Below, in pieces: positions 2,962 to 27,603 of a DNA stretch of 43,254 bases. The number at the start of each line of letters is the position of its first letter. The stretch's first letter is position 1. A model generated the notes under the pieces. That model saw nothing but the letters and a program-made list of their open reading frames with translations, had not been told where the DNA came from and made no database searches. The position numbers were made by a program, and so were the translations under genes. The stretch comes from Ilumatobacteraceae bacterium (GTDB taxonomy: Bacteria > Actinomycetota > Acidimicrobiia > Acidimicrobiales > Ilumatobacteraceae). The stretch is from NCBI GenBank assembly GCA_025451395.1, contig JANWKM010000033.1, positions 1 to 43,254 of the forward strand. Reading direction: 5' to 3'.

Positions 2962-4827
<1,866 letters not shown>

Positions 4828-4835
4828 GGCCCCTG

Positions 4836-5366
4836 ATGACCGACGAAGCAGACGAAGCGGAAGCAGACGAAGCAGCCGTTGACGAAATCGCTGTAACCGA
4901 GGCCGAAGTAGCTGTCGAAGACGACCGTGTAGTTAACGACTTAGCGAAGCTGCAATCAGAGCGTGACTCCTACAAGGACATCACGCTCCGACTGCAGGCC
5001 GACTTCGACAACTACCGCAAACGCGTCGGGACACAATTGGCCGATGAGGTGCAGCGCGCCACAGGCAGGATCGCTGAAGCGCTGCTGCCGGTGCTCGACG
5101 CGTGCGAAGCAGCGTTCCTCCAGCACCCGGCGGAAGTGGAGCCGATCTTCAATAGCCTGCTCGGCGAATTGCGCAAGCTCGGCCTGGAGGCGATGAACCT
5201 CCACGAGAAGCCGTTCGATCCCGCTCTCGCCGAGGCAGTTGAGCACGAGGCTGCCGTTGAAGGGAATGATGATGCTCGCGGGCCGATCGTGACGGAAGTG
5301 CTGCGTAGCGGCTACATGTGGAACGGACGCGTGTTGCGCCCCGCCATGGTGAAAGTGCGGGGCTGA
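4836..5366 (+). CDS. grpE: Nucleotide exchange factor GrpE.
   Basis: The product is 176 aa with an acidic N-terminus followed by LRLQADFDNYRKRV. The gene lies between dnaK and dnaJ. Confidence 0.9.
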   Translation: MTDEADEAEADEAAVDEIAVTEAEVAVEDDRVVNDLAKLQSERDSYKDITLRLQADFDNYRKRVGTQLADEVQRATGRIAEALLPVLDACEAAFLQHPAEVEPIFNSLLGELRKLGLEAMNLHEKPFDPALAEAVEHEAAVEGNDDARGPIVTEVLRSGYMWNGRVLRPAMVKVRG

Positions 5367-5372
5367 TCGCCC

Positions 5373-6488
5373 ATGGCCGCTCAGCGCGAGTGGTACGAAA
5401 AGGACTACTACAAGATCCTCGGCGTAAAAGACACGGCCGACGCGAAGACGATCACGAAGGCGTACCGCAAGCTCGCCCGTGAAAGTCATCCCGACGCGCA
5501 TCCCGGTGATGCCAAGGCTGAGGACCGTTTCAAGGAAGTCAGCGCCGCGTACGACGTCCTGGGCGACGAAGCCAAGCGCAAGGAATACGACGAGATACGC
5601 AGCCTCGGTCCCGCCGACTTCGGTCGCCCAGGTGGCGCGCCTGGCGGATTCAACTTCAACGTCGGTACCGACGGGTTCGGTGACATCTTCGGTCAAGTGT
5701 TCAACAGTCGTCGCCGCGGTGGCGGAGCATCGTCGGCAGCCGGTCCACAACGGGGAGCCGACGTTGAAGCAACCCTGACGCTGGACTTCGTCGACGCGGC
5801 GAAGGGACTGACCACGACGTTGCACCTCACCAGCGACACGCAGTGCTCGACGTGCGGCGGCAGCGGTGCCAAGCCGGGTACACAACCAAAGGTGTGCTCG
5901 CAGTGTGGTGGCCGCGGAGTCGTCAACGACAATCAAGGTCTGTTCTCGCTGTCGTCGACATGCCGCGTCTGTGGCGGAGCGGGAGTGATCATCGAAGAAC
6001 GCTGCCCAACGTGCAGCGGATCCGGCGTCGAGCGCCGCCCGCGCGACGTGCAGGCTCGCATTCCTGCCGGCGTAGCCGATGGTCAGCGCATTCGACTGAA
6101 GGGTCGTGGTGGTCCCGGTCGCAATGGTGGCCCCGCCGGCGATCTGATCGTCGAATGCAATGTCATGCCACACCCATTGTTTGCGCGCGACGGCAATCAC
6201 CTGACAGTGCATGTACCGGTCACTTTCCCGCAGGCGGCCCTGGGCGGCGACATCGACGTGCCGACGCTCGACGGCCCGACGGTGAAGCTGCGGCTGCGAC
6301 CCGGCACACAGTCGGGGAGTCGCCACCGTGTCAAGGGCAAGGGACTGGCAACGGCCAAGGGTGCCGGCGACCTGATCGTGACTGTTGACGTGCACGTTCC
6401 CACGCACCTCACCGACGAGCAGCGTGTAGCCCTCGAGGCATTCGTGACGGCGAGTACCGTTACAAGTGGGAAGGGAACGAAGGACTGA
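5373..6488 (+). CDS. dnaJ: Co-chaperone DnaJ.
   Basis: The J domain is present (DYYKILGV ... HPD). Four CxxCxGxG zinc-finger repeats are present (CSTCGGSG, CSQCGGRG, CRVCGGAG, CPTCSGSG). Confidence 0.95.
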   Translation: MAAQREWYEKDYYKILGVKDTADAKTITKAYRKLARESHPDAHPGDAKAEDRFKEVSAAYDVLGDEAKRKEYDEIRSLGPADFGRPGGAPGGFNFNVGTDGFGDIFGQVFNSRRRGGGASSAAGPQRGADVEATLTLDFVDAAKGLTTTLHLTSDTQCSTCGGSGAKPGTQPKVCSQCGGRGVVNDNQGLFSLSSTCRVCGGAGVIIEERCPTCSGSGVERRPRDVQARIPAGVADGQRIRLKGRGGPGRNGGPAGDLIVECNVMPHPLFARDGNHLTVHVPVTFPQAALGGDIDVPTLDGPTVKLRLRPGTQSGSRHRVKGKGLATAKGAGDLIVTVDVHVPTHLTDEQRVALEAFVTASTVTSGKGTKD

Positions 6489-6491
6489 TCG

Positions 6492-6872
6492 ATGCGATCA
6501 CAAGAGCACGCCGTATACGTCATTTCCGTCGCTGCCGAATTGGCCGGCATGCACCCGCAAACATTGCGCATCTACGAGCGCCGGGGTCTTGTGCAGCCGG
6601 CACGAACGCAAGGTGGTAATCGGCGCTACAGCGATGTCGACATTGCGCGGTTGCACCGCATCAGCGAACTCGCTGCCGAAGGAATGAATCTGGAGGGCAT
6701 CCGGCGTGTGATGGCGCTCGAGCTCGAGGTCGAACGCCTTGGCGCCGAGAACGATAAGTTGCGCACCGTGGCCGCGAACGCGATCGCCGAAGCCGCACGC
6801 CGCGCGCCACGTCGCGACTTGGTGCCGCTGAATCAGGACGTCACCGTATTCGGAGTACAGCGCAAGACATGA
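6492..6872 (+). CDS. hspR: MerR-family heat-shock repressor HspR.
   Basis: YVISVAAELAGMHPQTLRIYERRGLVQPARTQGGNRRYS is a MerR-type helix-turn-helix. The gene is last in the dnaK operon, and HAIR sites lie upstream of dnaK. Confidence 0.85.
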   Translation: MRSQEHAVYVISVAAELAGMHPQTLRIYERRGLVQPARTQGGNRRYSDVDIARLHRISELAAEGMNLEGIRRVMALELEVERLGAENDKLRTVAANAIAEAARRAPRRDLVPLNQDVTVFGVQRKT

Positions 6873-7261
6873 GCAGCCTTCGCGGACAACTACGCCAGGT
6901 GAGCCAGCCCGCCGACGATCTCGACCGTGCAATCGCCTTTTACCGCGACGTTCTCGGTCTCAAACTCATCGCCAGGTTCGGCGATCTCTCGTTCTTCGAT
7001 CTGGATGGCACGCGCCTACTTCTCGAAAAGCGTGTTGGCAATGGAGGAAGCTCGGTTCTCTACTTCGGCGTCTCAGACCTCGACAACGCGTGGCGCGAGC
7101 TCACCGAGCGCGGAGTGAGCTTTATCGAAGGGCCGCACACCATCTTCACCGACGCCGAGGGCACCTTTGGGCCGGTGGGAGAGGACGAGCGGATGGCGTT
7201 CTTCCACGACACCGAAGGAAACGTGCTCGCGCTGTCCAGTCGCGAGCCGAGGCGCCCTTAA
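6869..7261 (+). CDS. VOC (glyoxalase/bleomycin-resistance/dioxygenase) family protein.
   Basis: The product is 130 aa. AIAFYRDVLGLKL ... FFHDTEGNVLAL is the typical VOC beta-alpha-beta-beta-beta pattern. The start overlaps the hspR stop at ATGA. Confidence 0.7.
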   Translation: MSSLRGQLRQVSQPADDLDRAIAFYRDVLGLKLIARFGDLSFFDLDGTRLLLEKRVGNGGSSVLYFGVSDLDNAWRELTERGVSFIEGPHTIFTDAEGTFGPVGEDERMAFFHDTEGNVLALSSREPRRP

Positions 7262-7632
7262 GAGTCTGGTGTGTGGCACACAGCTTCGACGTTGTTGCCG
7301 TCGGGATCGCGTACAAACGCTCCGTAATACGTCGGGTGATACTCGGGCCACAGCCGCGCTTCGTGTAAGACCTCTGCACCAGCCGCTACTGCAGCGCTCT
7401 GGAACGCGCGCACCGTTGCACGATCCTTGGCTTCAAACGCAATATGCGATTCTCTGAAGCCCTCGCCGGAGTCGAACTTCCCGATCCAGAAGTCGGGCTT
7501 TGGAGGGATGCCGTAACCGATGGCAACACCAAAGTCCATGATCCGCTGCGCGCCCAGCGGTGCGAGTACCGCGTCGTAGAACGTGGTGCTGGCGGCGAGA
7601 TCGGCACACTGGATTCCTAGATGGTCGAGCAT
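7258..7632 (-). CDS. VOC/glyoxalase family protein.
   Basis: The product is 124 aa, with MLDHLGIQCADLAASTTFYDAVLAPLG and FVRDPDGNNVEAV. Its start lies 7 nt downstream of the SWIM gene stop on the same strand. Confidence 0.7.
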   Translation of the reverse strand: MLDHLGIQCADLAASTTFYDAVLAPLGAQRIMDFGVAIGYGIPPKPDFWIGKFDSGEGFRESHIAFEAKDRATVRAFQSAAVAAGAEVLHEARLWPEYHPTYYGAFVRDPDGNNVEAVCHTPDS

Positions 7633-7639
7633 GACCGCA

Positions 7640-8359
7640 TCATTTCACGAGTTCGTCGAGCGCCGATTGCACCCAGCTGCCGAGGTCGATGGTGCCAAGC
7701 ATCGACCGCCGCACCGGTACTTGTTTGCGTTCGATAGGCGGCGGTGTCGGAAGCGGCAACGCACCCAGGAATTGCCGCCATTCGTCTGTGGCCCATGGGT
7801 CGTTGGCTGCCGGCTCTGGTTCACGCGACCGCGAATGCGCCAACCGCAAGTGCCGCTCACTGCCGCGCAGCGCACGCGACCCGACGGAAGCGCGCTCGAC
7901 GGCGCTATCGCTCTCCGGCGATGCCGCACACCGCCACTCGAGCAGTAGTTCCGGCCGCGCGACCAACTCGGCCGCGAACGAAAGAAGTGCGGCGACAGCG
8001 TGCTTGCACGGATCGTCCCAATCCGGGCACGTGCAGCTGACGATCATCTCGCCACCCTCGGGAGTCAGACGCGTCAATTGCGTGCGGAGCGATTCGATCG
8101 GGCCGGGTGGACGCGGCACCATTCCCACCGCTGCCACCACCTGGTACGGCTCGTCGCGACTGCCCACGACCGTTGCGATCAGCTGACCCGGTGAGAGTTC
8201 GAGACGTGTCACGGCACCCTCGGCGACATACAGCTTGCCGCGTCGAAATCGTGGCGGGTCGGCCATGCCGGCGACCGCAACCGACAACAGCGTGCTGGCG
8301 AGTCGACCAACTGGATGCGGATCGCCGCTGAACTGACCGGGCAACAAGACGATGCTCAT
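7640..8359 (-). CDS. SWIM zinc-finger domain protein.
   Basis: CTCPDWDDPCKH matches the SWIM signature CxCxnCxH. I place the start at the MSIVLL ATG (8359-8357). It shares one base with the TGA of the upstream SNF2 gene (TGATG). The longer ORF-track version (to 8608) would lie inside the helicase gene. Confidence 0.75.
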   Translation of the reverse strand: MSIVLLPGQFSGDPHPVGRLASTLLSVAVAGMADPPRFRRGKLYVAEGAVTRLELSPGQLIATVVGSRDEPYQVVAAVGMVPRPPGPIESLRTQLTRLTPEGGEMIVSCTCPDWDDPCKHAVAALLSFAAELVARPELLLEWRCAASPESDSAVERASVGSRALRGSERHLRLAHSRSREPEPAANDPWATDEWRQFLGALPLPTPPPIERKQVPVRRSMLGTIDLGSWVQSALDELVK

Positions 8360-11283
8360 CAGGCGCGCACCTTCGAGTGATCGAGCACAACGAGGTCGCG
8401 CAACGCGTCGGTGCTCAGCTCGCTGAGCCAACTCTCGCCCGTCGTGCCAACCACTGCATCGGCCAACTTCCGTTTGTCGTCGATGAGCGCGTCGATGCGT
8501 TCCTCGACCGTTCCCTCGCACACCAACTTGTGCACAAACACTGTTCGCTGCTGACCGATACGCCACGCTCGATCTGTCGCTTGATCTTCGACTGCTGGAT
8601 TCCACCAACGGTCGTAGTGCACGACCTGCGACGCAGCAGTGAGGTTCAGGCCGGTGCCTCCAGCCTTCAACGAAACCAGCAGCAACGGCGCCTTGGCTGT
8701 GCCATCTTGAAAAGAAGTCACCATTCGATCGCGGTTGGCGCGGCTGACTCCACCGTGCAGGAACTGCACAGACTGACCAAACCGCTCATGCAAGTGCTGC
8801 TGCAGTAACAGACCCATTTCTCGGAACTGGGTGAAGACCAATGCGTGTTCTCCGGCATCGAGCAGATCGGTGACCAGTTCGTCGAAGCGATGCAGCTTGC
8901 CAGAACGTCCAGCCAACTTCGAGCCGTCTCCGAGAGCATGAGCAGGGTGGTTGCAGATTTGCTTCAGACGTGTGAGCGCGGCAAGAACCAGGCCGCGCCG
9001 ACGCATCCCGGTCGCCTCCTGCGCGTCGGCCAACAGTTGATCGACGACCGCTTGATAGAGGTGCGCCTGTTCGCGAGTCAGTGGTGCCCACGCGACCTGC
9101 TCGACCTTGTCGGGGAGGTCGGGCACGAGCGACTTGTCGGCCTTGGTACGGCGCAACAAGAACGGACCCGTGAGGCGACGTAATTCAGCGGTTGCCGCCG
9201 GGTCGTGCTCGCGTTCGATCGGAACCGCGAACTGCCTACGGAACTGCGTGGCGTTGCCAAGGAGCCCTGGCGCGACGATCTGAAAGATCGACCACAGTTC
9301 GCTGAGCCGATTCTCCATCGGAGTGCCCGTGAGGGCGATGTGTTGCCCGGCACCGATCGCGCGCATTGCGCGCGCGGTGCGCGTATCGGGGTTCTTGACC
9401 GCTTGCGCCTCGTCGAGCACGAACGTCGCCCACGGCACCTGTTGGAACGTTTCGAGATCGCGCGCGGCCACCTGATAAGTGGTGATGATCAGGTCGTGGG
9501 CGGCGACACGGTTGGCAAATGTTGCGTCGGCGGCGCGGCCAGTGCCGTGGTGCACCATCACGCGCATCATCGGCGCAAAGCGAGCGGTCTCGGCTTCCCA
9601 GTTACGCACCACCGACAAGGGACACACCACCAGATGCGGACCCGGCAGACCGGCCAGGTGCCCGAGCGTGGTTGGCGTCTTACCAAGCCCCATGTCGTCG
9701 GCAAGGCAGCCGCCAAGTCCGAGGCGGTGCAGAAACTGCAGCCAGCCAAGGCCGCGCAATTGGTACGGGCGCAGGATGGCAGTGAACCCGTTGGGAACGT
9801 CGCCATCGGCGAGCGCTTCATCGGGAAGGCCCGCCAGCAACTCGTGCGCCCAACCGGTTGCCTCGACGGCTGTTTGCGTTTCAAACGCACCTTCAAGGAC
9901 ACCGATCCCTGCAGCCTCGAGTTCGCGCTGTAGCTCGGCGGCGAGTGCCAGCAACTGCAGCGCGGTCATCTCGCTGTGTTCGTCGCGATGGTGCGCCAGG
10001 TTGGCAAGCGCACGGCGAGCCTCGGCGCGGTCGATCTGCACCCAGCGACCGCCGATCTGAATCAGGTTGGCTCCCTGTTCTGCCGCGCGTCGCAACACCT
10101 CGTCGGATACTGCAGTGTCGTCGAGCGTTGCCTGCCATTGCACGAGAGCCGTTGCGGTAAACCGTCCTGGGGAACTGCCGTCGTTGGGTGTAGCGCTCGC
10201 GCGGGTTGTTGGTTTTCGACGGGTCAGCGTCTCGGGCGCGATCAACTCGACGCCGACGGCCGCGAGCGCGTCGATGCCTTCGAGCGCGGCGGCCGCGGTT
10301 TCGATGTCGACGTTGTCGTGCGCGGCGACCCAAGGGGTCAGGTCGGGGACCGCCCCCGCAATCACCACCAGAATGTCAGCGACGTATTGATGGAGCTTCG
10401 ACAAGAAGCGAGCCTCGTGCGCAAGCGCGAGTGCTGCTGGCGCTTCCGCCGCCAGATCGGCGGCCGTGCACCACACGCCGCGATCGTCGGCGTCGACCAA
10501 CTCAAGCGTTAACGGCCACGCCGTCGACTCGATCCCCTCGTCGGGGAGACCGAGGCGCAAACGAAGGCGCACGAGTGGCTCGCCCTCGGCTCGACGGCCA
10601 GCGAGCGAGAGCTCGGTGGCGATGTGCGCAACAGCGTCGGCCAGTTCGGCGGCGACCGCGAAGTGACCATCGTCGGCGATGAGCGCTCGACTCACTAGTC
10701 GCAGGGCTCGAGCGTTGGAGGCACGAGTGTCCGACAGGTCGGCGCGCCAACCGCGTGCGGCGAGCGTCAGCCGGCACAGCCGATCGACGAGCACGTGCAA
10801 CACATGCGTCGTGTCGACCGACCCGGCGGCCGCGACCGCCGGTGGCATCGCTGCCAATAGACCGTCGGCCACCGCGTTGACGTCGGCGGTCAGGGGCTGC
10901 CACTCGGCGATCCACGCCGACTCGGCGATATTGGTCAGTACCGGAAGCACCCGCCCGCTCGTTACTAAGTTGGCGGCGTAGTTGTGAACCGCTCCGAACC
11001 ACGCCACCGACGCGCTGACCTCGCCACGTAACACGTCGAGCTGACCGAGTGATGCAAGCGTGGCGGCATCGATGCGTTGACACATCACGTTCAATCGACC
11101 ATCGGGGACGTTCATCGGCACTAAACGGGTCGATGTGCTGTACGCCATGCTGGGTCGGCGAGCGACGCGCGCGACTTCTTGGTGAAGGTTGCCTCCGTAC
11201 ACCCCGCGACCCGGCTGCCACGCAAGTGCCTCGCCCTCCACCCAGCTGAGCTGCAAACCGGGGGGAGTAACACGCGCAGACAT
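8359..11283 (-). CDS. SNF2/RAD54-family helicase with a long N-terminal accessory region (HelZ-like).
   Basis: Helicase motifs are present: LADDMGLGKT (I), LDEAQAVKN (II), LTGTPMENRLSELWS (III), plus the C-terminal helicase domain (VSLKAGGTGLNLT, WWNPAVEDQATDRAWRIGQ). The start is uncertain. The ATG at 11283 has AGGA 8 nt upstream. The ORF-track start is 11349. Confidence 0.9.
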   Translation of the reverse strand: MSARVTPPGLQLSWVEGEALAWQPGRGVYGGNLHQEVARVARRPSMAYSTSTRLVPMNVPDGRLNVMCQRIDAATLASLGQLDVLRGEVSASVAWFGAVHNYAANLVTSGRVLPVLTNIAESAWIAEWQPLTADVNAVADGLLAAMPPAVAAAGSVDTTHVLHVLVDRLCRLTLAARGWRADLSDTRASNARALRLVSRALIADDGHFAVAAELADAVAHIATELSLAGRRAEGEPLVRLRLRLGLPDEGIESTAWPLTLELVDADDRGVWCTAADLAAEAPAALALAHEARFLSKLHQYVADILVVIAGAVPDLTPWVAAHDNVDIETAAAALEGIDALAAVGVELIAPETLTRRKPTTRASATPNDGSSPGRFTATALVQWQATLDDTAVSDEVLRRAAEQGANLIQIGGRWVQIDRAEARRALANLAHHRDEHSEMTALQLLALAAELQRELEAAGIGVLEGAFETQTAVEATGWAHELLAGLPDEALADGDVPNGFTAILRPYQLRGLGWLQFLHRLGLGGCLADDMGLGKTPTTLGHLAGLPGPHLVVCPLSVVRNWEAETARFAPMMRVMVHHGTGRAADATFANRVAAHDLIITTYQVAARDLETFQQVPWATFVLDEAQAVKNPDTRTARAMRAIGAGQHIALTGTPMENRLSELWSIFQIVAPGLLGNATQFRRQFAVPIEREHDPAATAELRRLTGPFLLRRTKADKSLVPDLPDKVEQVAWAPLTREQAHLYQAVVDQLLADAQEATGMRRRGLVLAALTRLKQICNHPAHALGDGSKLAGRSGKLHRFDELVTDLLDAGEHALVFTQFREMGLLLQQHLHERFGQSVQFLHGGVSRANRDRMVTSFQDGTAKAPLLLVSLKAGGTGLNLTAASQVVHYDRWWNPAVEDQATDRAWRIGQQRTVFVHKLVCEGTVEERIDALIDDKRKLADAVVGTTGESWLSELSTDALRDLVVLDHSKVRA

Positions 11284-11400: not shown

Positions 11401-13113
11401 GTGACCAAATCTTGCCGATCGTCGAACCGTTTCGCGCAGTTCCTCATTGGCGCGTTCTTGGCCGTGAGCGCTGGGTTTGTGGTCGGTTCGCCCGCTCCGG
11501 TTTCCGCGATGGCCTGTGATGGCTGCGTTGTGCTTTCGGCACCAACGATCAATCTGAATGTGACGGCCCAACCCGGCGGCCAAGCCACTATTGACCAACC
11601 CGGCGGGGTCGCGGTGTACACCCCGTTGACGACGGGTAGCCCCGGTGGGCCGGGCACCGTGTGGATCATCGGTCACCGCACGACCCACGGTTCGGTCTTT
11701 AATCAGGTTCCATTCCTCGCACCGGGTGCTCCTATCAGCCTGATCAACGAGTCGGGTGTGCATCAGTACATCGTCAACCGTCTCCTCGTGGTGCCATCGC
11801 GTGGCTGGCAACCTCAGGTCGACATCCACGACATGTCGCGTGTCCGGCTCATCATCCAGACCAGCCATCCGGACCCATCGCTGCGTTATCTGATCGAGGC
11901 CTTCGGTGTTGCGCCTGAGGTTTGTCGCACAACCGCCGTCGCGGTCGGCGACCCAAATCTGTCCTCTGCGACGACACGGTTTGTACCGATCCCCGCGCAG
12001 CGGCTGCTCGACACGAGGGCAGATGGCGGCGGAGCGGTGTGCGGCGGTGGGGACATCTCACTGCAGGTCGCGGGCCTTCCCGGGATCAGCCCCAACGCCA
12101 CGGCCGTCGCACTAACGGTGACGGCAATCGACAGTCGGGGAGCTGGCTTCGTATCGGTCGGGCCGGCGGGTGTGGATCTCAGTGGCACCTCGACTGTCAA
12201 CCTCAATGGCGCTGGAGAAACGCGAGCAAACCTGGTGATGGCACCAATCGGGCTCTCAGGCCAGATCGCGATCCATGTCTCGGTGACCACACACCTCGTC
12301 ATCGATGTGTCCGGCTACTTCGAACCGAGCACGTCGGCGCATGACGGTCGCTTCGTCGACGTTGCGCCGGAACGAGTTCTGGACACGCGGACCGACCCGA
12401 CCCAGCATCGTTTGCACTCCAGTGAGACGGTCACGGTGAAGATCGCGGACCGTCTTGCGCAATTTCCTACAGCTGAGGTGGGTGCTCTGCTGGTCAACCT
12501 GACGACCGTGAATGGTATTCCCGGGGGTTACCTGACCGCATGGGCGAGTGGCATGCCACGACCGGCGACATCGAACGTCAACGTCTCGATGATCGGCGAC
12601 GTTGCCGCCAACCTCGCGATCGTGCCGCTAGGGGCCGACGGATCCTTCCAACTCTTTGCCTCGACCGATCTCGATGTGATCATCGACATCGTCGGTTACT
12701 TCACGAACAACAACGCCCCCGAGACAAGCATCGGATTCTTCGTGCCCGTCACTCCGCGACGCGTTCTTGATACGCGAGCAGGTCAACCCGCGCTCGGTGC
12801 CAACACAACAACTGATTTTGATCTCGTCGGCCCGGCGGGGACTGTTGGTCCAGTGAATCTCGTGACCAACCTCACGAGTACAGCGAGCCTCGGTGGTGGT
12901 TTCGTTGCAATCACGGACGGCTTGGCTCCGTCGACTTCCAATCTCAACGTAGTAAGAGGCGAGACGCGCGCCAATCTCGCCATTATCTCTGCACGCGACG
13001 CGGAACTAACTCACGTCTATGTGTCGCTCCAGACCCACATCATCATCGATGTCACTGGCTACTTCACGACCGAAACGCAACCACGCACGCGGTATTGGTT
13101 GCTTCGAACGTAG
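11401..13113 (+). CDS. Secreted or anchored sortase-fold protein with Ser in place of the catalytic Cys, carrying 3 C-terminal LDTR...GYF repeats.
   Basis: The gene starts with GTG. The hydrophobic N-terminus is FAQFLIGAFLAVSAGFVVG...VSA-MACDGC. The sortase-like order is GHRTTHGSVF (His at 11674-11676), LIIQTSHP (Ser AGC at 11863-11865), then LRYLIEAF (Arg). Three repeats of about 115 aa follow, at aa 193-307, 317-434 and 446-555. The existence of the CDS is solid. The fold assignment is by eye. Confidence 0.65.
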   Translation: MTKSCRSSNRFAQFLIGAFLAVSAGFVVGSPAPVSAMACDGCVVLSAPTINLNVTAQPGGQATIDQPGGVAVYTPLTTGSPGGPGTVWIIGHRTTHGSVFNQVPFLAPGAPISLINESGVHQYIVNRLLVVPSRGWQPQVDIHDMSRVRLIIQTSHPDPSLRYLIEAFGVAPEVCRTTAVAVGDPNLSSATTRFVPIPAQRLLDTRADGGGAVCGGGDISLQVAGLPGISPNATAVALTVTAIDSRGAGFVSVGPAGVDLSGTSTVNLNGAGETRANLVMAPIGLSGQIAIHVSVTTHLVIDVSGYFEPSTSAHDGRFVDVAPERVLDTRTDPTQHRLHSSETVTVKIADRLAQFPTAEVGALLVNLTTVNGIPGGYLTAWASGMPRPATSNVNVSMIGDVAANLAIVPLGADGSFQLFASTDLDVIIDIVGYFTNNNAPETSIGFFVPVTPRRVLDTRAGQPALGANTTTDFDLVGPAGTVGPVNLVTNLTSTASLGGGFVAITDGLAPSTSNLNVVRGETRANLAIISARDAELTHVYVSLQTHIIIDVTGYFTTETQPRTRYWLLRT

Positions 13114-13283
13114 GAGAGTGGTGTGGCAGTTGTATGGATCTCGTTTAACCAAGCGCGGCGTGTGAGCCACACAACTCTTAAGACAGATCGTCTAGTAACA
13201 AAGGTCTTTTGGCCCCTCGGGCAGCACCGCGTAAGCGCCGACAGCATTGGGTGCCCGCCACACACCTTCCCCGCATTGTCGCG

Positions 13284-14999
13284 ATGCTGCGTCTTGTCTC
13301 GAGGTTCGTCGCCGTTTCAGTTGTCGCGAGCGCCGGTTCTGTTCTGGTACTCACGTCGGATACCCCAGCGTCGGCACAGGCGTGCGCTGGCTGCGTCGTT
13401 GTCTCGGCGCCAACAATCAGTCTGAGTGCCACAGCTCGCCCCGGTGGCCAGAGTGTCATCGACCAACAAGGCGGGGTTGCTGTCTATACCGGCTTGACCA
13501 CAGGTTTGATCGGCGGGCCCGGCACGGTGTGGCTGGCCGGGCATCGCACGAGTCACGGTTCGGTCTTCAATCGGGTGCCATTCCTTGTCGCCGGTGATCC
13601 GATCAATTTGAGCGACGACACGGGTTCGCACCAGTACATCGTCAACCGACTGCTCGTGGTGCCCGCGAGCGGCTGGCAGAACTATGTCGACATCAACAAC
13701 ATGTCGCGCTCGCTGTTGATCCTTCAGACCAGCCATCCCGACCCGTCGCTTCGGTACCTGATCGAGGCGTTCGGCACCCTGCCGGAGATTTGTCGCACGG
13801 CGCCACTCGTCACTGGCGGCGCAAGTCTCTCCACAGCAACCACACGGTTCGTCTCAATGCCGCCGCAACGACTGCTCGATACCCGTGTCGATGGTGACGG
13901 AGTGGTGTGCGCCGGTGGCAACATCACGCTGCAACTCTGGGGCGCTCCTGGCATCAGCACAACTGCAACGGCGGTTGCCTTGACTGTGACAGCCACCGAC
14001 AGCCGCGGGCCAGGCTTCGTCTCCGTCGGGCCGGCCGGCCTCGATCCCAGTGGCACCTCAACCGTCAACCTCGGCGCCGCCGGACAGACCAGGGCCAACT
14101 TGGTGATGGTCGCAATTGGCATCTCCGGTCAGATTGCTATTCATGTCTCGGTCGCGACACATCTCATCATCGATATCTCCGGATACTTCGAGCCGAGCAC
14201 GTCGGCTCGCGATGGTCGCTTTGTCGATGTCGCGCCGGAACGACTGCTCGACACCCGCACGGACCCTACGCAACCTCGGCTGCACGCGAACCAAACCGCC
14301 ATCGTGAACATCGCACAACACACCGCTCAGGTGCCCGTCACTCAAGCAAGTGCAGTGATGGTCAATCTGACAGCGGTCAACGGTGTGCCCGGGGGTTACG
14401 TGACGGCATGGGCGAGCGGTATCCCGCAACCGGCGACATCGAATGTCAACCTGACGGCCATCGGTGACGCAGCCGCGAACCTCGCGATCGTGCCACTCGG
14501 CGCTGACGGATCGATCCAGCTCTTCGCCTCGACGGATCTCGATGTGATCATCGATGTTGTCGGATACTTCACGAATGTCAACGCCTCGGACGCGGCTGTC
14601 GGTCTGTTCGTGCCGTTGACCCCGCGACGCGTGCTCGACAGCCGGACCAGCCGACCGGTACTTGCCGCCGGCACTACCAGCAACTTCGATCTTGCCGGCC
14701 CGGCTGGGATTGCTGAGCCGGCAACTCTCGTCGCCAACATCACCAGCACCATCAGCCACGGCCAAGGCTTCGTTTCGATTACTGATGCCACTCTTCCTTC
14801 AACGGCACCTTCAACGGCACCCTCGACGTCCAACCTCAGCGTTTCAAGAGGCGAAGACCGTGCCAACCTCGCCATCATCTCTGCTGTCAATGCTCAGTTG
14901 GTGCACGTCTTCGTGTCGCTGCAGACACACATCATCATCGACGTCACCGGTTACTTCACGGCTGGCTCGAGGTTTGGGTCGCTGGGATCTGTCGGCTGA
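13284..14999 (+). CDS. Paralog of the 11401-13113 gene: sortase-fold (Cys to Ser) plus 3 LDTR...GYF repeats.
   Basis: It is collinear with the upstream gene: ASA-QACAGC, GHRTSHGSVF, LILQTSHP (Ser AGC at 13731-13733) and LRYLIEAF. I prefer the ATG at 13284 (MLRLVSRFVAVSVVASAG...) over the ORF-track start at 13209. Confidence 0.65.
   Translation: MLRLVSRFVAVSVVASAGSVLVLTSDTPASAQACAGCVVVSAPTISLSATARPGGQSVIDQQGGVAVYTGLTTGLIGGPGTVWLAGHRTSHGSVFNRVPFLVAGDPINLSDDTGSHQYIVNRLLVVPASGWQNYVDINNMSRSLLILQTSHPDPSLRYLIEAFGTLPEICRTAPLVTGGASLSTATTRFVSMPPQRLLDTRVDGDGVVCAGGNITLQLWGAPGISTTATAVALTVTATDSRGPGFVSVGPAGLDPSGTSTVNLGAAGQTRANLVMVAIGISGQIAIHVSVATHLIIDISGYFEPSTSARDGRFVDVAPERLLDTRTDPTQPRLHANQTAIVNIAQHTAQVPVTQASAVMVNLTAVNGVPGGYVTAWASGIPQPATSNVNLTAIGDAAANLAIVPLGADGSIQLFASTDLDVIIDVVGYFTNVNASDAAVGLFVPLTPRRVLDSRTSRPVLAAGTTSNFDLAGPAGIAEPATLVANITSTISHGQGFVSITDATLPSTAPSTAPSTSNLSVSRGEDRANLAIISAVNAQLVHVFVSLQTHIIIDVTGYFTAGSRFGSLGSVG
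14796..14831 (+). repeat. In-frame 12-bp tandem repeat encoding PSTA-PSTA-PSTS.
   Basis: cct tca acg gca occurs twice perfectly (14796-14819), followed by ccc tcg acg tcc. The paralog has a single APSTS at the equivalent place. Confidence 0.85.
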
Positions 15000-15011: not shown

Positions 15012-17048
15012 TCACTGCGCTTGTTCCGCGGCACGCTTGCGTAACATCTTGAGCAATTCGGTCTGCGAGCGAACACCAAATCTTTGATAGATCGCGCTGA
15101 GATGGTTACGTATGGTGCTTTGGCTCAAGAACAACTCCTGAGCTACATCCTTTACTCGCTGACCGCCAAGCATTCGCCGGAGGATTTCGATCTGCCTGCT
15201 TGAGAGGTTGTCGTCGTCGAAGTCAAGGTCTTCGTCGCCATCCTGGTCGCGGACTGTTCGCAGCATCTCTAGTAGTGCGGTGTCGACATGACGGCCAACC
15301 GTCTCGAACATCGCGCGCCGTCGATCCACCGCAGAACGAACGCGCGCGGCGAGATCACGCGGCGTGAACGGTTTCACGATGTAGTCGTCGGCCCCAGCCA
15401 AGAACGCGTCGGCCTTGTCGACTCTGTCGGCGTGACCGGTCAGCATCACGATGGTGCACTCCTTGGTGGTGAGACCTTCCCGAAGCTCCCGGCACACATC
15501 CATGCCACTCATGTCCGGCAATCCCACGTCGAGCAGGATGCAATCGGGTGTGAGCTGGCGTGCCATCGCCAGTCCGGTCGCACCGGCAGCAGCCTCGGTG
15601 ACAGTGAAGCCGGCCGAGGCAAGACACATCCTCGCCAACATTCTGACGTCGGTTGCGTCGTCGACAATCAGCACGGATTCAGCAATCCATGGCTTGAACT
15701 TCTCGTCACTCCCGGACGGGTTGAAACCAATCAGGGTCTGTCCGGTGGCGTGCGCAACCAGATAGTTCCCGATCTCGACGGACGAAACAGGATGGGAGAT
15801 GAGGTAGCCCTGCGCGAAATCGCAGCCCATCGTGCGAATGCGTTCCAGTTGGTCGCGTGTTTCGACACCCTCAGCCACGACCTCTTGGTTCATCGTTTGG
15901 GCAAGACTGATAATGGACGCAACGATGGCGCCACTGACTGTGCTGCCACCGAGTCCAGCGACGAAGGAACGGTCGATCTTCAGTTCGTCGATCGGCATTC
16001 GGTGCAGGTACTCGAGCGACGAGTAGCCGGTTCCGAAATCGTCGATCGAAAGTTTGAAGCCGAGTGCCTTCAGCTCGTCGAGGATCCCGATGGTTCCCTC
16101 GATGTCGCTCATGATCGTGGTCTCGGTCACCTCGAGGCAGATGGTGTGGGCATCGATTCCAGTTTCGATGAGAAGTTCGCGAATGGTTGGCACCAACCCC
16201 GTTTGGAACTGGCGAGCGGACACGTTGATGGAAACATGCACTGGCGACTTTGGATAGCGCTGATGCCAAATCGCAGCCTGTCGAAACGCCTCGCGTAAAA
16301 CCCACTCACCGATCGGGACGATGACGCCGCTCGACTCTGCGGCTGGAATGAATTCTGCCGGCATGACCGTGCCAATGCCCGGGCGCTCCCATCGGAGCAA
16401 CGCCTCGACACCGACGATTCGATTGGTCGTCAGCGAGATTGTCGGCTGATAAACCAAGCGAAACTCGTCGGCGACTAGTGCGTGTCGCATCGCCTCGACG
16501 AGATCAGACTGCACTTGCTCTCGTGGTTCGCGGAGTTCGACGGTGAAGAAGTGTTGCCCGCCGCCTGCAACGGTCCGTGCATGATCTTGCGCGGTCTCAG
16601 CCTCGACAATCATTTGCTGGGCTTCGGAATATCGCTCCGCCATCGCGACCCCGATCCGGGCAGTCACCATGGCTTGCCCAGATCTGAGCGTGATCGGCAT
16701 CGCAATTGCATCGAGCACAACCGTCGCGATGGCAGCGGCGGCGGCCGGGTCGAGCACACCCTCACACAGCACGAGGAACTCGTCACCACCGACCCGGCAG
16801 ATCGTGCTCACGGTGCTGGTGTCGTTGTCGTGTTGACGCAGCGAGGTGCGTAGCCGATCCGCGACGGAGAGCAACACCGCGTCGCCGCCGTCATGGCCAT
16901 AATCCTCGTTGACGTAATGAAAATGATCAACGTCGATGGAGAAAATCGCGATCAACGAGGCGAGCGCCCTGACTTGGCTGAGCGCAGTTTGCGCGTGCTC
17001 GAAGAAGTTCTCGTACGTCGACAATCCCGTCAATGGATCGCGCACCAA
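15012..17048 (-). CDS. Multidomain c-di-GMP signalling protein with the order GGDEF-EAL-REC-LuxR(HTH).
   Basis: - GGDEF domain, aa 4-165: DPLTGL, IDVDHFHYVNEDYGHDGGD, RVGGDEF.
- EAL domain, aa 185-425: VEALLRW, DDFGTGYSSL, KIDRSF, EGVET, QGY.
- REC domain, aa 458-575: LIVDD, LLDVGLPDMSG, MLTG, IVKPF.
- LuxR HTH, aa 612-672: LSSRQIEILRRM ... LFLSQSTIRNHLSAIYQRFGV. Confidence 0.9.
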   Translation of the reverse strand: MVRDPLTGLSTYENFFEHAQTALSQVRALASLIAIFSIDVDHFHYVNEDYGHDGGDAVLLSVADRLRTSLRQHDNDTSTVSTICRVGGDEFLVLCEGVLDPAAAAAIATVVLDAIAMPITLRSGQAMVTARIGVAMAERYSEAQQMIVEAETAQDHARTVAGGGQHFFTVELREPREQVQSDLVEAMRHALVADEFRLVYQPTISLTTNRIVGVEALLRWERPGIGTVMPAEFIPAAESSGVIVPIGEWVLREAFRQAAIWHQRYPKSPVHVSINVSARQFQTGLVPTIRELLIETGIDAHTICLEVTETTIMSDIEGTIGILDELKALGFKLSIDDFGTGYSSLEYLHRMPIDELKIDRSFVAGLGGSTVSGAIVASIISLAQTMNQEVVAEGVETRDQLERIRTMGCDFAQGYLISHPVSSVEIGNYLVAHATGQTLIGFNPSGSDEKFKPWIAESVLIVDDATDVRMLARMCLASAGFTVTEAAAGATGLAMARQLTPDCILLDVGLPDMSGMDVCRELREGLTTKECTIVMLTGHADRVDKADAFLAGADDYIVKPFTPRDLAARVRSAVDRRRAMFETVGRHVDTALLEMLRTVRDQDGDEDLDFDDDNLSSRQIEILRRMLGGQRVKDVAQELFLSQSTIRNHLSAIYQRFGVRSQTELLKMLRKRAAEQAQ

Positions 17049-17196: not shown

Positions 17197-18939
17197 TTAT
17201 GTGACGGAACCGACTATCCACGCGTTCGATGGGTCGTCCCACAATGACCCTGGTGCCGCATTGCGCACGACTTGGATGATCGCTCCAATCGAAACCCGGA
17301 ACGTTTGGGTGAGTCCAGTGGTGCACCCACCGCCGACATCCAATGGGTCATCGGGGTTGCAGTACGCCGTGTTCACCGGAACCCGAATCACGACGGCTCC
17401 GCCCTCGTTTGTTACTCGCACCACGATCCCATCGGGCGCCCAGCGCGCGCTGAACTCGCATTGCGCGCCTGTTCCATTCAGCAGCGTTGTCGGTGTGCAA
17501 CCGTCTCCGCTCGCCGCGGTCCACGTCACGTCGGCCGTGTGATCGTCATCGGTCAGAACTCCGACGTCGTAGGTAGCGGTTCGCGGGCTCCGGACGGGTG
17601 CGCCGCGCAGGGCCAGTGGATAGCGCTGATCGCCCTGTAGATCGGTCGCGAGCAAACGAACACAGAACGAACCTTCCCAGCCACCGGGAAGTGTCGGATC
17701 AAGATAAACATCGCCGTCGACCACGGTGACGGCTTGATCAGGTGCTGTCACGTTGCGCCTCTCGCTGGTCACCGAGAATCGGCCGCTACGGGTTCGGTCG
17801 ACTCCCTGCTGATTGCCCGCCCAACCGGCACAGTCGGCACCCTCCACGAATGCATGATCGGCGAAGACTCGGATCTGTCCCGGTTGCAGCGGAGCTCCGA
17901 CGGGTACGACCGCATCGCTCAGGAATGAATAGTGCACGTGCACCGTCGGATATAGCACGCCATCGATTCGGCGTTGCTCGCCGCGACCCGTGATCGTCAC
18001 ATGATCGACGAAGAATGGATCGGTCGTCTCGGCAGGCACGTCGAGGCTGATTGTGGCGTTCAACTCTGTCTGACCGTTCGCACTGATCGCCAACACGCTC
18101 GCTCGCAGTTGAGCCGTACCGCCTGCAACGTGTGGACGAACCTGATCGACCGGCAGGCTGACGCATCCGACGATCATTCGCTGTTCACCCGTCTCGGTGA
18201 ACACACGTTGCCACTCGTCGTCGTGCGCGGCGAGCGTCACCATCGTCGTCTTCTCGAATGCTGTTCCGTCGGCCCACGTCCCACTGACGGCGATCGTGGA
18301 TGGTTGGTTCACCAGTACGGCAAGCGTCGGGCGCACTGCAGGCGGCACAAGCGCATCGGGAACGTTGCCCGCCTGCACCTCGTCGCATAACGCCGCGAAC
18401 GCACCTGCGGCGGCGAAGGGTGTCGACACGCGCAGCGGATCCGGTGTCGCTGGTTCGGCATCCGCCGATTCCGGAACGGTTTCCAGCACGGTTTCCAGAA
18501 CGACAGCAGAGTGCGTCGGCGGTGACACTCCGAGGTCCGCATCCATCGCAACTGCATCCCGCGGGACGATCGGGCTCGAGACGACTGCGGGCGCGGGCTG
18601 GAGAGTCGCTGAGTCGACAGCGACGGCCGGTGCCCCTGCGGTCAGCGGAATCTCCAACCGGTTACCCCCGGACACGTCGATTCCCGCCGCGTTGAAATAC
18701 GCGCTTGCACCAATAACCATTGACTCGTCCGTGTCGAGCGGTGTCGGTGCGCCGTGCAACGGGTGAAGTGGAGCTAGCTCGTCGAACGATGTGGGCAACG
18801 TTTGGGCCGTGTCGCTCAGCGGAGTGCCGTCTTCACCATCGGCGGTGAACCAGCCGACTGCACCACCTCCGAGCAGCAACAGCAACGGCGCACCAACAAC
18901 TAGAGGTAGCGGAAGGCGCGAGCGGTTCATCAGCCGCAC
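17197..18939 (-). CDS. Exported protein of unknown function (about 577-580 aa).
   Basis: The N-terminus MNRSRLPLPLVVGAPLLLLLGGGAVGW is a signal peptide or anchor. I recognise no domain. The protein is Cys-containing and probably extracytoplasmic. The ATG at 18930 would share one base with the upstream stop (TGATG). The ORF-track GTG start is 18939. Confidence 0.6.
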   Translation of the reverse strand: MRLMNRSRLPLPLVVGAPLLLLLGGGAVGWFTADGEDGTPLSDTAQTLPTSFDELAPLHPLHGAPTPLDTDESMVIGASAYFNAAGIDVSGGNRLEIPLTAGAPAVAVDSATLQPAPAVVSSPIVPRDAVAMDADLGVSPPTHSAVVLETVLETVPESADAEPATPDPLRVSTPFAAAGAFAALCDEVQAGNVPDALVPPAVRPTLAVLVNQPSTIAVSGTWADGTAFEKTTMVTLAAHDDEWQRVFTETGEQRMIVGCVSLPVDQVRPHVAGGTAQLRASVLAISANGQTELNATISLDVPAETTDPFFVDHVTITGRGEQRRIDGVLYPTVHVHYSFLSDAVVPVGAPLQPGQIRVFADHAFVEGADCAGWAGNQQGVDRTRSGRFSVTSERRNVTAPDQAVTVVDGDVYLDPTLPGGWEGSFCVRLLATDLQGDQRYPLALRGAPVRSPRTATYDVGVLTDDDHTADVTWTAASGDGCTPTTLLNGTGAQCEFSARWAPDGIVVRVTNEGGAVVIRVPVNTAYCNPDDPLDVGGGCTTGLTQTFRVSIGAIIQVVRNAAPGSLWDDPSNAWIVGSVT

Positions 18940-19766
18940 CCGAAGCTGGAGGCTTTGCGTAGTTGCACCACGAGTTGGCCGGCGCCGATGTTTCCCGCTC
19001 CGTCAGATCCGGTGGCAGTGATAGTGACTGGCAGTTCACCACTGCTTGGACCGTTGGAGGTGACCTGCAGTGAGAAGCGATTACCGCCGATCGGCGTCAG
19101 GTTCGCCGATCCCGGGCCCGATGGACCGGTCCACGTCGCCTCGATCGAACGGATGGTGAGCGGCAGCGTCGAATCGGCAACCACAACCGTGACCTCGAGT
19201 ACGTCTTGGCCAACGCATGCTGGTGTTGAATTGACGGGAGGCACGTAGAGGTAGGGGCGGTTGGCCGTGACCGTGACCGTTGGGGGTGTGACGTCACTCG
19301 ACACCGTCGAAGTTGTCGAGATCAAGGTCGTCGTTGTCGTCGTAGTGGAGGTTGTCGTTGTCGAGCTACTGCTCGTCGTCACGGGCGACGTGCTGGTCGT
19401 CGCAACCGCGATGGTCGTCTCGGTCACGTTGGCTGCGTCGCCGCAAGTCAACTGCGGAAGGTCGCCCGCGTTGGCATCGGTCGCTACCAATGCGAGTGGC
19501 AGCCACGCGGGTCGGTCGGGGTCATCGGGATGACGAATGACAGCCCACCGATCGTCAGTGACGCCGATCAACTGCAGCTCGTCGCCGACGTTGACGGCGC
19601 CGATCGCAACACCTCCCGGCACGGGACAGTCGTAGATAGGTATTGCGCCGAGAGCTGTTCCCGACTGCGTCTCGTCGTCATGCAGCTGTCCGGCAGCCGC
19701 CCAACCACCCCCCGCTGCGGCGAGCGAGCCGACGATGAGCGCGACGCGGGCGCCGAGTCCGCTCAC
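18930..19766 (-). CDS. Membrane-anchored protein with an SH3-like segment, a Thr/Ser-rich linker and a C-terminal beta-rich (Ig-like) domain.
   Basis: The gene starts with GTG. A TM segment is present (ARVALIVGSLAAAGGGWAAAG). GDELQLIGVTDDRWAVIRHPDDPDRPAWLP resembles bacterial SH3. The linker is TTSTSPVTTSSSSTTTTSTTTTTTTLISTTSTVSS. The tail is TPPTVTVTANRPY...LEVTVVVAD...VTITATGSDGAGN. Confidence 0.55.
   Translation of the reverse strand: MSGLGARVALIVGSLAAAGGGWAAAGQLHDDETQSGTALGAIPIYDCPVPGGVAIGAVNVGDELQLIGVTDDRWAVIRHPDDPDRPAWLPLALVATDANAGDLPQLTCGDAANVTETTIAVATTSTSPVTTSSSSTTTTSTTTTTTTLISTTSTVSSDVTPPTVTVTANRPYLYVPPVNSTPACVGQDVLEVTVVVADSTLPLTIRSIEATWTGPSGPGSANLTPIGGNRFSLQVTSNGPSSGELPVTITATGSDGAGNIGAGQLVVQLRKASSFGCG
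19293..19424 (-). repeat. Low-complexity Thr/Ser-coding tract (the linker of the 278-aa protein).
   Basis: The + strand reads as runs of gtcgtc/gttgtc/gtggag, which are ACN/AGC/TCN codons on the - strand. Confidence 0.7.
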
Positions 19767-26451: not shown

Positions 26452-27603
26452 GTGATGCGGCGAATTCTGTCCCCGGTCGCTTTGGGGGCGCTGGCGCTTG
26501 GTGCGGTTGCGTGTTCCGGCGACTCATCGACCGTTGCGACGACGACCACACCGGGGCAAACAGCAAGCGCCGGATTGGACGGAATCCAAACGCTGCTGTC
26601 CTTGCGCCACGCTGGAGCGTGGCGGGCGGACGGTGTGGACGACATCGAGGTGTGGATCTGCCACGTTCCCGTCGACACGACGGCGCCGATGTACTTCGGC
26701 CTGCCTCTGCGACTTCCGCTGACGACAGCGGGAGTAGTTGAAGTACTCAATGCACGCGTCACAACTTATTACGACACGATCTCGAACGGCCTTTATCACC
26801 CCCAGTTTCATTCGGGGGGTGAGGCCAACCTCGGCATCAGTCAGGACCCGCACGTCTGCGTTGATCAGGCGATCATCGGTGCCGAGGACACTGCCGATGC
26901 AGTGCTCGTGGTCGCGGATGCGGAGCACGTTCCAGGATTTCGGGGAGGTTTCGGCACCGGAGGCCAACCGTGCCCTTTTGAACCGCCGTGCCCGGTGCTC
27001 AACTCGCGCCGGTCGGCATACGTCGGGGCCAGCGACTTCAATTCCGTTTGGGGTGCTGAGCCGCCAATGGACTTGGTCGAGCACGAGATCGGGCACACAC
27101 TCGGTTGGGCGCACAGCGGTTTCGTCGACGGCGCGCAGTATCAAAGTGCACTCGACCTGATGAGCAACAACGCCGCGCCGCGCGAGATCGATCCAGCGCG
27201 CCGCGACGGACCCGACACTCTGGCCATCAATCGATTGCTCGCTGGCTGGTTGCCAGAGTCCGACGTATGGGTCGCACCGCCGCGTGGCGGGATGGTGCAC
27301 TTGGAACCGTCGACATCCGACGGCGGAACGCGGTTGGCCTTCGTCGTTCTTAGTACCGGCGTTGGTAACGCCAGTTACCTCACGGTTGAAGTGTTGAGTT
27401 CCGATGGATACAACGCCCACCTTCCTGCCGGCGGCGTCGCAGTGCACCGCGTCGAGGTCACCCTTTGGGAGGTGCAAGCGAATGTGCCTCTCGTCGGCGC
27501 GGCACCGTTCACCGACCTGCTACAACCTGGCGAATTCGTGGAAAGCGACGGCTGGCGCATCGAGGCGCTCGAGGGCGGCGTTTCGATTACGCCCGTTCCT
27601 TAA
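26452..27603 (+). CDS. Putative secreted or lipoprotein zinc metalloprotease with a metzincin-type motif.
   Basis: The signal peptide MMRRILSPVALGALALGAVAC-SGDSS has a loose lipobox. HEIGHTLGWAH equals HExxHxxGxxH. I do not recognise the rest of the protein. Confidence 0.55.
   Translation: MMRRILSPVALGALALGAVACSGDSSTVATTTTPGQTASAGLDGIQTLLSLRHAGAWRADGVDDIEVWICHVPVDTTAPMYFGLPLRLPLTTAGVVEVLNARVTTYYDTISNGLYHPQFHSGGEANLGISQDPHVCVDQAIIGAEDTADAVLVVADAEHVPGFRGGFGTGGQPCPFEPPCPVLNSRRSAYVGASDFNSVWGAEPPMDLVEHEIGHTLGWAHSGFVDGAQYQSALDLMSNNAAPREIDPARRDGPDTLAINRLLAGWLPESDVWVAPPRGGMVHLEPSTSDGGTRLAFVVLSTGVGNASYLTVEVLSSDGYNAHLPAGGVAVHRVEVTLWEVQANVPLVGAAPFTDLLQPGEFVESDGWRIEALEGGVSITPVP

Follow-up and report, generated by a model that had tools for sequence, protein, structure and literature searches.

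Serine at the position of the sortase cysteine in a tandem pair of actinobacterial proteins and in a large clade of their relatives

The stretch of DNA analysed here (the window) is 43,254 nt long and covers positions 1 to 43,254 of the forward strand of contig JANWKM010000033.1 (assembly GCA_025451395.1, an Ilumatobacteraceae bacterium). It carries two adjacent genes whose predicted products contain a sortase-fold domain with Ser at the site of the catalytic Cys. Gene 1 (11401..13113, forward strand) starts with GTG and encodes 570 aa: a signal peptide, a CDGC motif, the Ser-sortase-like domain, three jelly-roll repeats and a diverged basic tail. Gene 2 (13284..14999, forward strand) starts with ATG and encodes 571 aa with the same architecture; its product is identical to database entry P0001. 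An earlier note on this DNA had described two similar neighbours of this size on one strand. The open reading frames (ORFs) were found as described, and BLASTP aligned their products collinearly with 70% identity across 556 aa (E = 0), the sortase-like domains being 72% identical. The host is a freshwater or soil actinobacterium; carriers of the family in GTDB are Ilumatobacteraceae and unclassified metagenome-assembled genomes of Actinomycetes.

The N-terminal segment of protein 1, annotated as a signal peptide or signal anchor (11401..11514, forward strand; aa 1-38, ending in PVSAMA), has a hydrophobic core and small residues at positions -3 and -1, and by eye it lines up with the orthologs' PASAQA followed by Cys. 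The arrangement noted earlier, a hydrophobic N-terminus, an AxA site and a CxGC motif, is present in both proteins; the CxGC motifs (CDGC, 11515-11526, in gene 1; CAGC, 13383-13394, in gene 2; forward strand) directly follow the AxA-type site, so that the hydrophobic segment leads into the domain at once, with no linker visible by eye. In both proteins, as judged from these sequence features, the segment is probably a cleavable signal peptide and not a membrane anchor. The database call for gene 1 (P0005, 534 aa) starts at Met37 and so is without the signal peptide, while orthologs favour GTG 11401. For gene 2 both ATG 13284 and the upstream TTG 13209, from which the frame is open and which would add a basic RKRRQH n-region, are possible starts.

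The sortase-fold domain extends over 11515..11931 in gene 1 (aa 39-177, with CDGC, His92, Ser155 and Arg162) and over 13383..13799 in gene 2 (aa 34-172, with CAGC, Asp60, His87, Ser150, Arg157 and Cys170), both on the forward strand. The Pfam Sortase model PF04203 matched both proteins above its gathering score of 26.6 (29.4 bits for gene 1 and 37.8 bits for gene 2). The NCBIfam class E model NF033747 gave 29.4 and 31.8 bits against a cutoff of 160 bits, with only the central ∼60 residues matched; models of the class D, C, F and GN sortases (NF033746, NF058671, NF033745, NF033748 and TIGR03784) gave at most 18 bits or no match. AlphaFold2 (AF2), given a domain alignment of 50 sequences, modelled residues 30-180 of protein 2 with a predicted local distance difference test score (pLDDT) of 93 and a predicted template modelling score (pTM) of 0.84. 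The top 50 Foldseek matches of this model in PDB were all sortases (classes C, A, E and D), with template modelling (TM) scores of 0.61-0.75 and root mean square deviations of 2.1-2.6 Å. By profile and predicted fold, an eight-stranded beta-barrel (TM 0.73 to solved sortases), the N-terminal domains of both proteins belong to the sortase superfamily, as the earlier note had proposed. As it lacks the Cys that defines sortases as cysteine transpeptidases and fails the class models, we assign the domain neither to class E nor to any other of classes A-F.

Codons of the candidate active-site residues lie on the forward strand at 11674-11676 (CAC, His92 of protein 1) and 13542-13544 (CAT, His87 of protein 2), at 11863-11865 (AGC, Ser155) and 13731-13733 (AGC, Ser150), and at 11884-11886 (CGT, Arg162) and 13752-13754 (CGG, Arg157); Asp60 and Cys170 of protein 2 are encoded at 13461-13463 and 13791-13793. 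The codons cited in the note, one for the His of gene 1 and two for the Ser of both genes, are correct, and both paralogs do retain the His and the Arg. His92/His87 is invariant in all 50 aligned sequences, and Arg162/Arg157 is invariant among close orthologs.

Three kinds of comparison place the Ser at the nucleophile position. An ungapped alignment of eight residues sets LTLTTCHP of class E against LILQTSHP of the window proteins, with Ser over Cys. Two sets of closer sequences give the same register: canonical Cys sortases that carry the repeat module of the window proteins (L[IV]ACHP) align ungapped with Cys over Ser, and so do LLQTC proteins of the same clade (30-38% identical), in which the Arg follows 6-7 residues on, as in the window proteins. 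In the AF2 model (domain numbering; 29 is added to obtain protein 2 numbering) His58 comes directly after β4 (51-57), Ser121 ends β7 (114-121) and Arg128 stands second in β8 (127-135). The same strand layout is seen for His251, Cys320 and Arg329 in the structure of SrtE1 (PMC5148588). According to the model, His, Ser and Arg of both proteins correspond in topology to the His/Cys/Arg triad of sortases. When distant PDB sortases were aligned by pairwise and profile HMMER, the Cys fell on Gln148 (2kw8) or Thr149 (4d70) instead. We rejected these placements as register slips of 1-2 residues, which arise when the β7-β8 loop, in the window proteins shorter by 2 residues, is aligned without a gap; the register of the Ser therefore rests on the closer relatives and the model, not on the distant PDB alignments. 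With closer relatives, motif flanks and strand ends of the model agreeing on Ser150, the assignment of this residue made in the earlier note stands.

The Ser is no peculiarity of one assembly. A Ser codon is present at the same site in 7 genes from 5 independent assemblies, and the close orthologous clusters (62-86% identical) all have QTSHP; sequencing error is therefore excluded. No ortholog in the survey has Cys, and the suggestion of selection rather than decay is borne out by substitution rates. Between orthologs, the ratio of nonsynonymous to synonymous divergence (dN/dS) amounts to 0.086 and 0.087 in the sortase-like domain (with dS of ∼0.5), 0.15 and 0.20 for the repeat module, and 0.16 (gene 1 versus the P0003 gene) and 0.17 (gene 2 versus the P0002 gene) for the whole genes. 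Such values point to strong purifying selection on the domain. The locus that carries P0002 and P0003 (L002) also has a tandem pair, each copy of which is orthologous to one window copy, and the window paralogs differ from each other at dS of ∼1; by this sequence comparison both paralogs have been kept from a time before the L002 organism split off.

An exhaustive phmmer search, with the domain as query and 1.84 billion representatives as target, yielded 227 matches at E ≤ 0.001. Among the best 150 of these, 103 have Cys at the nucleophile column, 25 have Ser, 2 have Glu, 2 have Ala and 1 has Leu, all 25 Ser being in LQTS context. A profile of the Ser sequences extended the clade to at least 439 protein clusters. 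The residue counts that follow were made on the best 120 of these 439 clusters, whose sequences are only about 30% identical. His is present at its column in 120/120; the nucleophile column has Ser in 114, Cys in 3, Thr in 2 and one gap, and never Ala, Gly or Asn. The clade has the signature G-x-Q-x3-D…HR…Q-T-[S/C/T]; Gln27, Asp31 and Gln119 in domain numbering (Q56, D60 and Q148 of protein 2) are found in 111-114 of the 114 Ser members. Among these, Q56 and Q148 are specific to the clade, whereas the near-invariant D60 is common in class-E-like sortases as well. We considered Asp60 as a third triad member peculiar to the Ser clade and rejected it, the same residue being the commonest at this position in class-E-like Cys sortases (43/90).

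None of the Ser-clade relatives reaches an NCBIfam class cutoff, all scoring far below, and source records call them merely 'sortase' or 'LPXTG-site transpeptidase family protein'. The Ser clade is large, undescribed and filed in databases simply as 'sortase'. In the papers searched there was no described natural Ser sortase and no Ser-type member of MEROPS C60, and nothing relevant on pseudo-sortases or C184S activity data. To our knowledge, every sortase studied so far uses a catalytic Cys at the nucleophile position. The earlier note was right about the residue and the architecture; the two genes are no isolated case but belong to this large clade.

Serine codons divide along the lineages of the clade. 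In the window subfamily the Ser codon is AGC in 6 genes and AGT in 1 (AGY in 7/7), while the other Ser-clade lineages have TCN in 14/14 readable genes. Single substitutions connect AGY and TCN only via codons for Cys (TGY) or Thr (ACN). Ser was therefore gained from Cys at least two times, or else the site has always held a nucleophilic residue; either way the codon pattern speaks for function rather than loss of function. An argument of this kind from 'two serines' was reportedly made by Brenner for the active-site serines of the trypsin family. A neighbour-joining tree was also tried for counting Cys/Ser transitions; it proved too weak, and the codon-family argument was used instead.

Behind the sortase-like domain each protein carries a module of ∼380 aa made up of three repeats of ∼115-120 aa, delimited by internal BLASTP and motifs. 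In gene 1 the module covers 11956..13068 (forward strand; repeats at about aa 194-307, 318-434 and 447-555), and in gene 2 13824..14957 (forward strand; repeats at aa 189-302, 313-429 and 442-558). The repeats follow the pattern F-V-x-x-x-P-x-R-[LV]-L-D-T-R ... D-[IV]-x-G-Y-F, and the motifs R-x2-D-T-R, S-x2-N and D-x2-G (as D-x2-G-Y-F) are invariant in each, which suggests three equivalent ligand or metal sites. The AF2 model of the gene 2 module (residues 181-558; pLDDT 94, pTM 0.93) is a compact all-beta unit of three jelly-roll-like domains. Foldseek found no whole-chain match for it in PDB (TM < 0.25); partial matches were to carbohydrate-binding modules (CBMs) of family CBM22 and of GH101 enzymes, to a single-chain C1q head and to a viral triple jelly roll. 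The module has no Pfam or NCBIfam match.

This module occurs in thousands of proteins and is shared with more than 20 other exported enzyme families, its partner being almost always a catalytic domain. Partners include M10, S8, the S53 pro-domain, M23, NlpC/P60, amidase_2, S13 carboxypeptidase, CapA, sulfatase and pyrroloquinoline quinone (PQQ) dehydrogenase, and further RCC1, beta-propellers and canonical Cys sortase. The earlier note had stressed the fusion to repeats as unusual for sortases. The repeats are indeed there, but the fusion is a minority form of the subfamily and is also seen on ordinary Cys sortases. The same syntenic place is occupied in two related loci (L003 and L004) by a form of ∼220 aa without repeats, the commonest form in the subfamily; the repeat module is thus accessory to it.

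Both long and short members (the latter at L003 5875-6552 and L004 5893-6564) end in a short family tail with consensus R-x-T-K-F-G-S-I-K-S-x-V, which in short forms is preceded by a Pro/Thr/Ala-rich linker. The gene 2 tail is SRFGSLGSVG (14967..14996, forward strand). The gene 1 tail, PRTRYWLLRT (13081..13110, forward strand), is a diverged version, the ortholog P0003 ending in PRTKFGAIRS. We considered a frameshift as the cause of the odd gene 1 tail and rejected it, as the tail is diverged but in frame. Among the other ORFs of the window and of loci L001-L005, none carries this tail. It is no classical sorting signal, because it is not hydrophobic; it could be a docking or pseudo-substrate peptide.

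Downstream of gene 2, and convergent with it, lies a GGDEF-EAL-REC-LuxR gene (15012..17048, reverse strand; Pfam) for turnover of, or regulation by, cyclic di-GMP (c-di-GMP). A GGDEF-EAL neighbour is also present at L002, and a 683-aa ORF in the same position and orientation at L004 is its probable counterpart. The link of this neighbour to the sortase-like locus is tentative. The conserved gene order runs SWIM, SNF2 helicase, sortase-like gene(s), GGDEF-EAL, two unknown exported proteins, aldehyde dehydrogenase. The two exported proteins are encoded by overlapping genes at 17197-18939 (580 aa) and 18930-19766 (278 aa), both on the reverse strand; they have N-terminal hydrophobic segments and no Pfam match, the 278-aa protein has a long Thr/Ser-rich linker, and the pair is also found beside the sortase-like gene(s) in L002, L003 and L004. 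The rest of the window is ordinary chromosome, with genes for an aminotransferase, an alcohol dehydrogenase, DnaK, a SWIM/SNF2 helicase, the GGDEF-EAL regulator, an aldehyde dehydrogenase, a P450, DnaX and others. A 383-aa ORF at 26452-27603 (forward strand) has sub-threshold matches to reprolysin-type (M12B) metallopeptidase profiles near residues 192-231 and may encode a divergent zinc peptidase.

Across the Ser clade, a GGDEF or EAL gene was found within two genes of the Ser-clade gene in 6/9 roughly independent contexts. The positive ones are the window with L002 and L004, then L006 (3936-4616), L008 (4897-5544 and 10061-10486), L010 (4837-5892), L011 (6928-8241) and L012 with L014, counted as one (3985-5457 and 4320-5837); the negative ones are L007, L013 and L015. 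A rough binomial estimate for this adjacency, assuming that 1% of genes are GGDEF/EAL genes, is ∼3e-7. The other neighbours differ among the positive contexts. Rfam was scanned with the window and 10 related loci and nothing matched, so no c-di-GMP riboswitch was found, and a scan for promoters and terminators stayed at or below shuffle expectation.

A six-frame scan of the window for a sorting motif followed by a hydrophobic stretch and a basic tail came back empty, as the earlier note had reported for sorting signals; the six frames also held no Cys-sortase motif in sortase context. With neither a sorting-signal protein nor a Cys sortase in the window, we therefore propose no cognate substrate from the locus. 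The only substrate-like neighbour seen adjoins a distant Ser-clade member at L007. It is a 1379-aa surface protein with CLIPPER/DUF11 repeats (6811-10950, reverse strand) that ends in ...PLPVSGSDVIRTVYFALLLVIAGGALRIARNARRSRRAS, that is, LPVSG, a hydrophobic stretch and RRSRR, a sorting signal of LPxSG type.

Small Ser-type copies (VLQTS or LQCS) are also present on IMG/VR viral contigs (L016 4767-5372, L017 about 5001-5260, L018 2696-3082 and L020 about 5001-5270) and in a phage-like region (L013 6001-6489). Among the viral-contig hits, four of five are small VLQTS proteins with lipoprotein signal peptides (LLAGC, LALAGC, LLSAC). Genes near the viral or phage-like copies include a weak portal match, a DNA methylase, an SNF2 helicase and a VanY/PG_binding_1 protein.

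We give an even chance to the reading that both proteins are exported sortase-derived Ser/His acyl-transfer enzymes in which the nucleophile has changed from Cys to Ser. Conservation and the codon pattern speak for such chemistry indirectly. In such an enzyme the His would serve as general base for the Ser hydroxyl. Attack of the Ser on a peptide carbonyl would give an acyl-(oxy)ester intermediate, which either water (peptidase) or an amine (transpeptidase) would then resolve. The substrate would be an extracellular or cell-envelope peptide rather than a membrane-embedded LPXTG signal, because the protein is apparently released by signal peptidase and no sorting-signal protein is encoded nearby. 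The triple jelly-roll module, being common to many exported hydrolases of related bacteria, would act in targeting or binding, and the KFGSIKS tail might dock to the domain or serve it as a pseudo-substrate. The recurrence of GGDEF/EAL neighbours suggests that the proteins take part in cell-surface remodelling linked to c-di-GMP. A wider version of this reading seems to us tentative and on balance somewhat improbable: that the sortase fold was turned at least twice, in the AGY and the TCN lineages, into an acyl-transfer enzyme with a hydroxyl nucleophile (Ser, at times Thr) and an oxy-ester intermediate, an enzyme that aerobic actinobacteria of waters and soils and some of their phages export, that acts on a signal other than LPXTG (possibly the KFGSIKS tail) and that is wired to surface remodelling controlled by c-di-GMP.

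Several observations speak against an active Ser enzyme or its proposed setting. In canonical sortases the His and the Cys are not tightly hydrogen-bonded, and engineered Cys-to-Ser and Cys-to-Ala sortases are reported as inactive, so that a Ser in this pocket would need compensating changes. An Arg within +4 to +8 of the Ser is found in 65/114 Ser-clade members (∼57%), and one large subfamily has His at the Arg column. The neighbour-joining tree separating the Ser-clade lineages is weakly supported; the c-di-GMP link comes from 9 contexts only, several of them on contigs from one sequencing project; and no LPXTG- or LAXTG-type sorting signal occurs in the six frames of the 43-kb window. The main alternative is a non-catalytic pseudoenzyme of sortase fold, a peptide- or cell-wall-binding module that would use Ser, His and Arg as ligand contacts; it might hold a peptide resembling a sorting signal, the protein's own C-terminal tail or a stem peptide of peptidoglycan. 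Cys-to-Ser is a classic inactivating change in cysteine enzymes, engineered Cys-to-Ser sortases being reportedly inactive in general; the Arg is patchy across the wider clade, the window has no substrate protein nearby, the fused module is CBM-like, and the conserved tail on its flexible Pro/Thr-rich linker is a possible self-ligand. We regard this alternative as doubtful, though a real contender. Former catalytic positions usually drift, while here the column admits Ser, Cys and Thr only and the His is kept in 120/120 clusters at ∼30% identity; the existence of two Ser codon families implies that a nucleophilic side chain was selected for repeatedly or without interruption; and constraint on the domain exceeds that on the binding module. 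Of the two, an active Ser enzyme or a dead binding module, the evidence leans towards the active enzyme.

The remaining possibilities concern the Ser itself. The proteins could still be thiol enzymes, with a Cys of CxGC or Cys170 relocated as nucleophile and the Ser a bystander, since Cys34, Cys37 and Cys170 are kept in long-form orthologs and CxxC motifs are redox-active in other families. We think this very unlikely: Cys170 is missing from the short forms, and CxGC is confined to the window subfamily, other Ser-clade subfamilies having C-x5-C before β4 or C-x13-C near β1. Such subfamily-specific pairs are as expected for structural disulfides of exported proteins, and the invariant residue is the Ser, not any of the Cys. 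In favour of an error at a TGC codon, or of a fresh pseudogene pair, stands the fact that AGC is one base off TGC. Both are excluded by the Ser of the two paralogs, by its recurrence in 7 genes of 5 assemblies, in every close orthologous cluster and in >100 clusters besides, by intact ORFs and by dN/dS of ∼0.09-0.2.

Work on sortases, from their definition and classification to inhibition and engineering, treats them as cysteine transpeptidases. A large natural clade that keeps the fold, the His and, in the window proteins, the Arg, but has Ser under strong selection, raises the question of whether serine chemistry can operate in the sortase fold. If these are Ser enzymes, a textbook enzyme family would gain a second catalytic type. 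That could explain how aerobic planktonic actinobacteria avoid an oxidation-sensitive thiol in exported enzymes, and could provide oxidation-resistant scaffolds for sortase-based protein ligation. If they are not catalytic, the clade would be a large and clean case of a bacterial extracellular pseudoenzyme, with a binding partner worth finding. In both cases hundreds of proteins bear a misleading label, 'sortase' or 'LPXTG-site transpeptidase'. Further leads are the c-di-GMP genes that recur nearby and the widespread unannotated triple jelly-roll module.

Among known systems, class E sortases (SrtE1 and SrtE2 of Streptomyces coelicolor and SrtE of Thermobifida fusca; PDB 5cuw and 9iok) are the best-scoring class by profile and by PDB sequence. 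They share with the window proteins the beta-barrel (TM ∼0.73), an actinobacterial host and three motifs, GHRT[ST][HY]GxxF after β4, T[C/S]HP ending β7 and RY[LV][IV]xA in β8. The window proteins differ in having Ser for Cys, Gln for the Thr two residues earlier and a β7-β8 loop shorter by 2 residues. Class E enzymes have a membrane anchor and a long linker where the window proteins have a probable cleavable signal peptide and then CxGC; the window proteins also carry extra C-terminal modules and have no LAXTG substrate nearby.

A second group is formed by the uncharacterised 'LLQTC' proteins (P0126, P0130 and P0135 among them), Cys-bearing members of the same clade that are 30-38% identical to the window domain and that likewise stay below every NCBIfam class cutoff. 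The signature G-x-Q-x3-D-x2-G ... H ... Q-T-[C/S], the short β7-β8 loop and the Arg at +6/+7 are common to both. The LLQTC proteins keep the Cys, resemble ordinary sortases in having an N-terminal membrane anchor with an Ala/Pro-rich linker, and lack the repeat module and the KFGSIKS tail. A third group, the fusions of the repeat module with a Cys sortase (P0029, P0046, P0060, P0067, P0073, P0077, P0098 and others; ∼550 aa; named 'LPXTG-site transpeptidase (sortase) family protein' by JGI), has a module 36-39% identical to that of the window proteins. The order is reversed in these fusions, with repeats N-terminal and sortase C-terminal; the active site is a normal L[IV]ACHP...R, and the sortase belongs to another lineage, class-E/C-like at 70-80 bits.

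Two likenesses reach beyond sortases. LapG of Pseudomonas, which acts with LapD, is a periplasmic cysteine protease of transglutaminase-like fold that releases an adhesin under control of c-di-GMP. The likeness is functional only, an exported protease-like protein tied genetically to c-di-GMP genes; the folds are unrelated, and the GGDEF/EAL neighbours seen here have no common receptor architecture. The PA clan differs in fold and clan from the proteins described here. There a single fold works with a Ser nucleophile (chymotrypsin-type) or a Cys nucleophile (picornain 3C-type), and, as in the Ser clade, active-site Ser codons of both the AGY and the TCN family occur, with Cys as a plausible intermediate.

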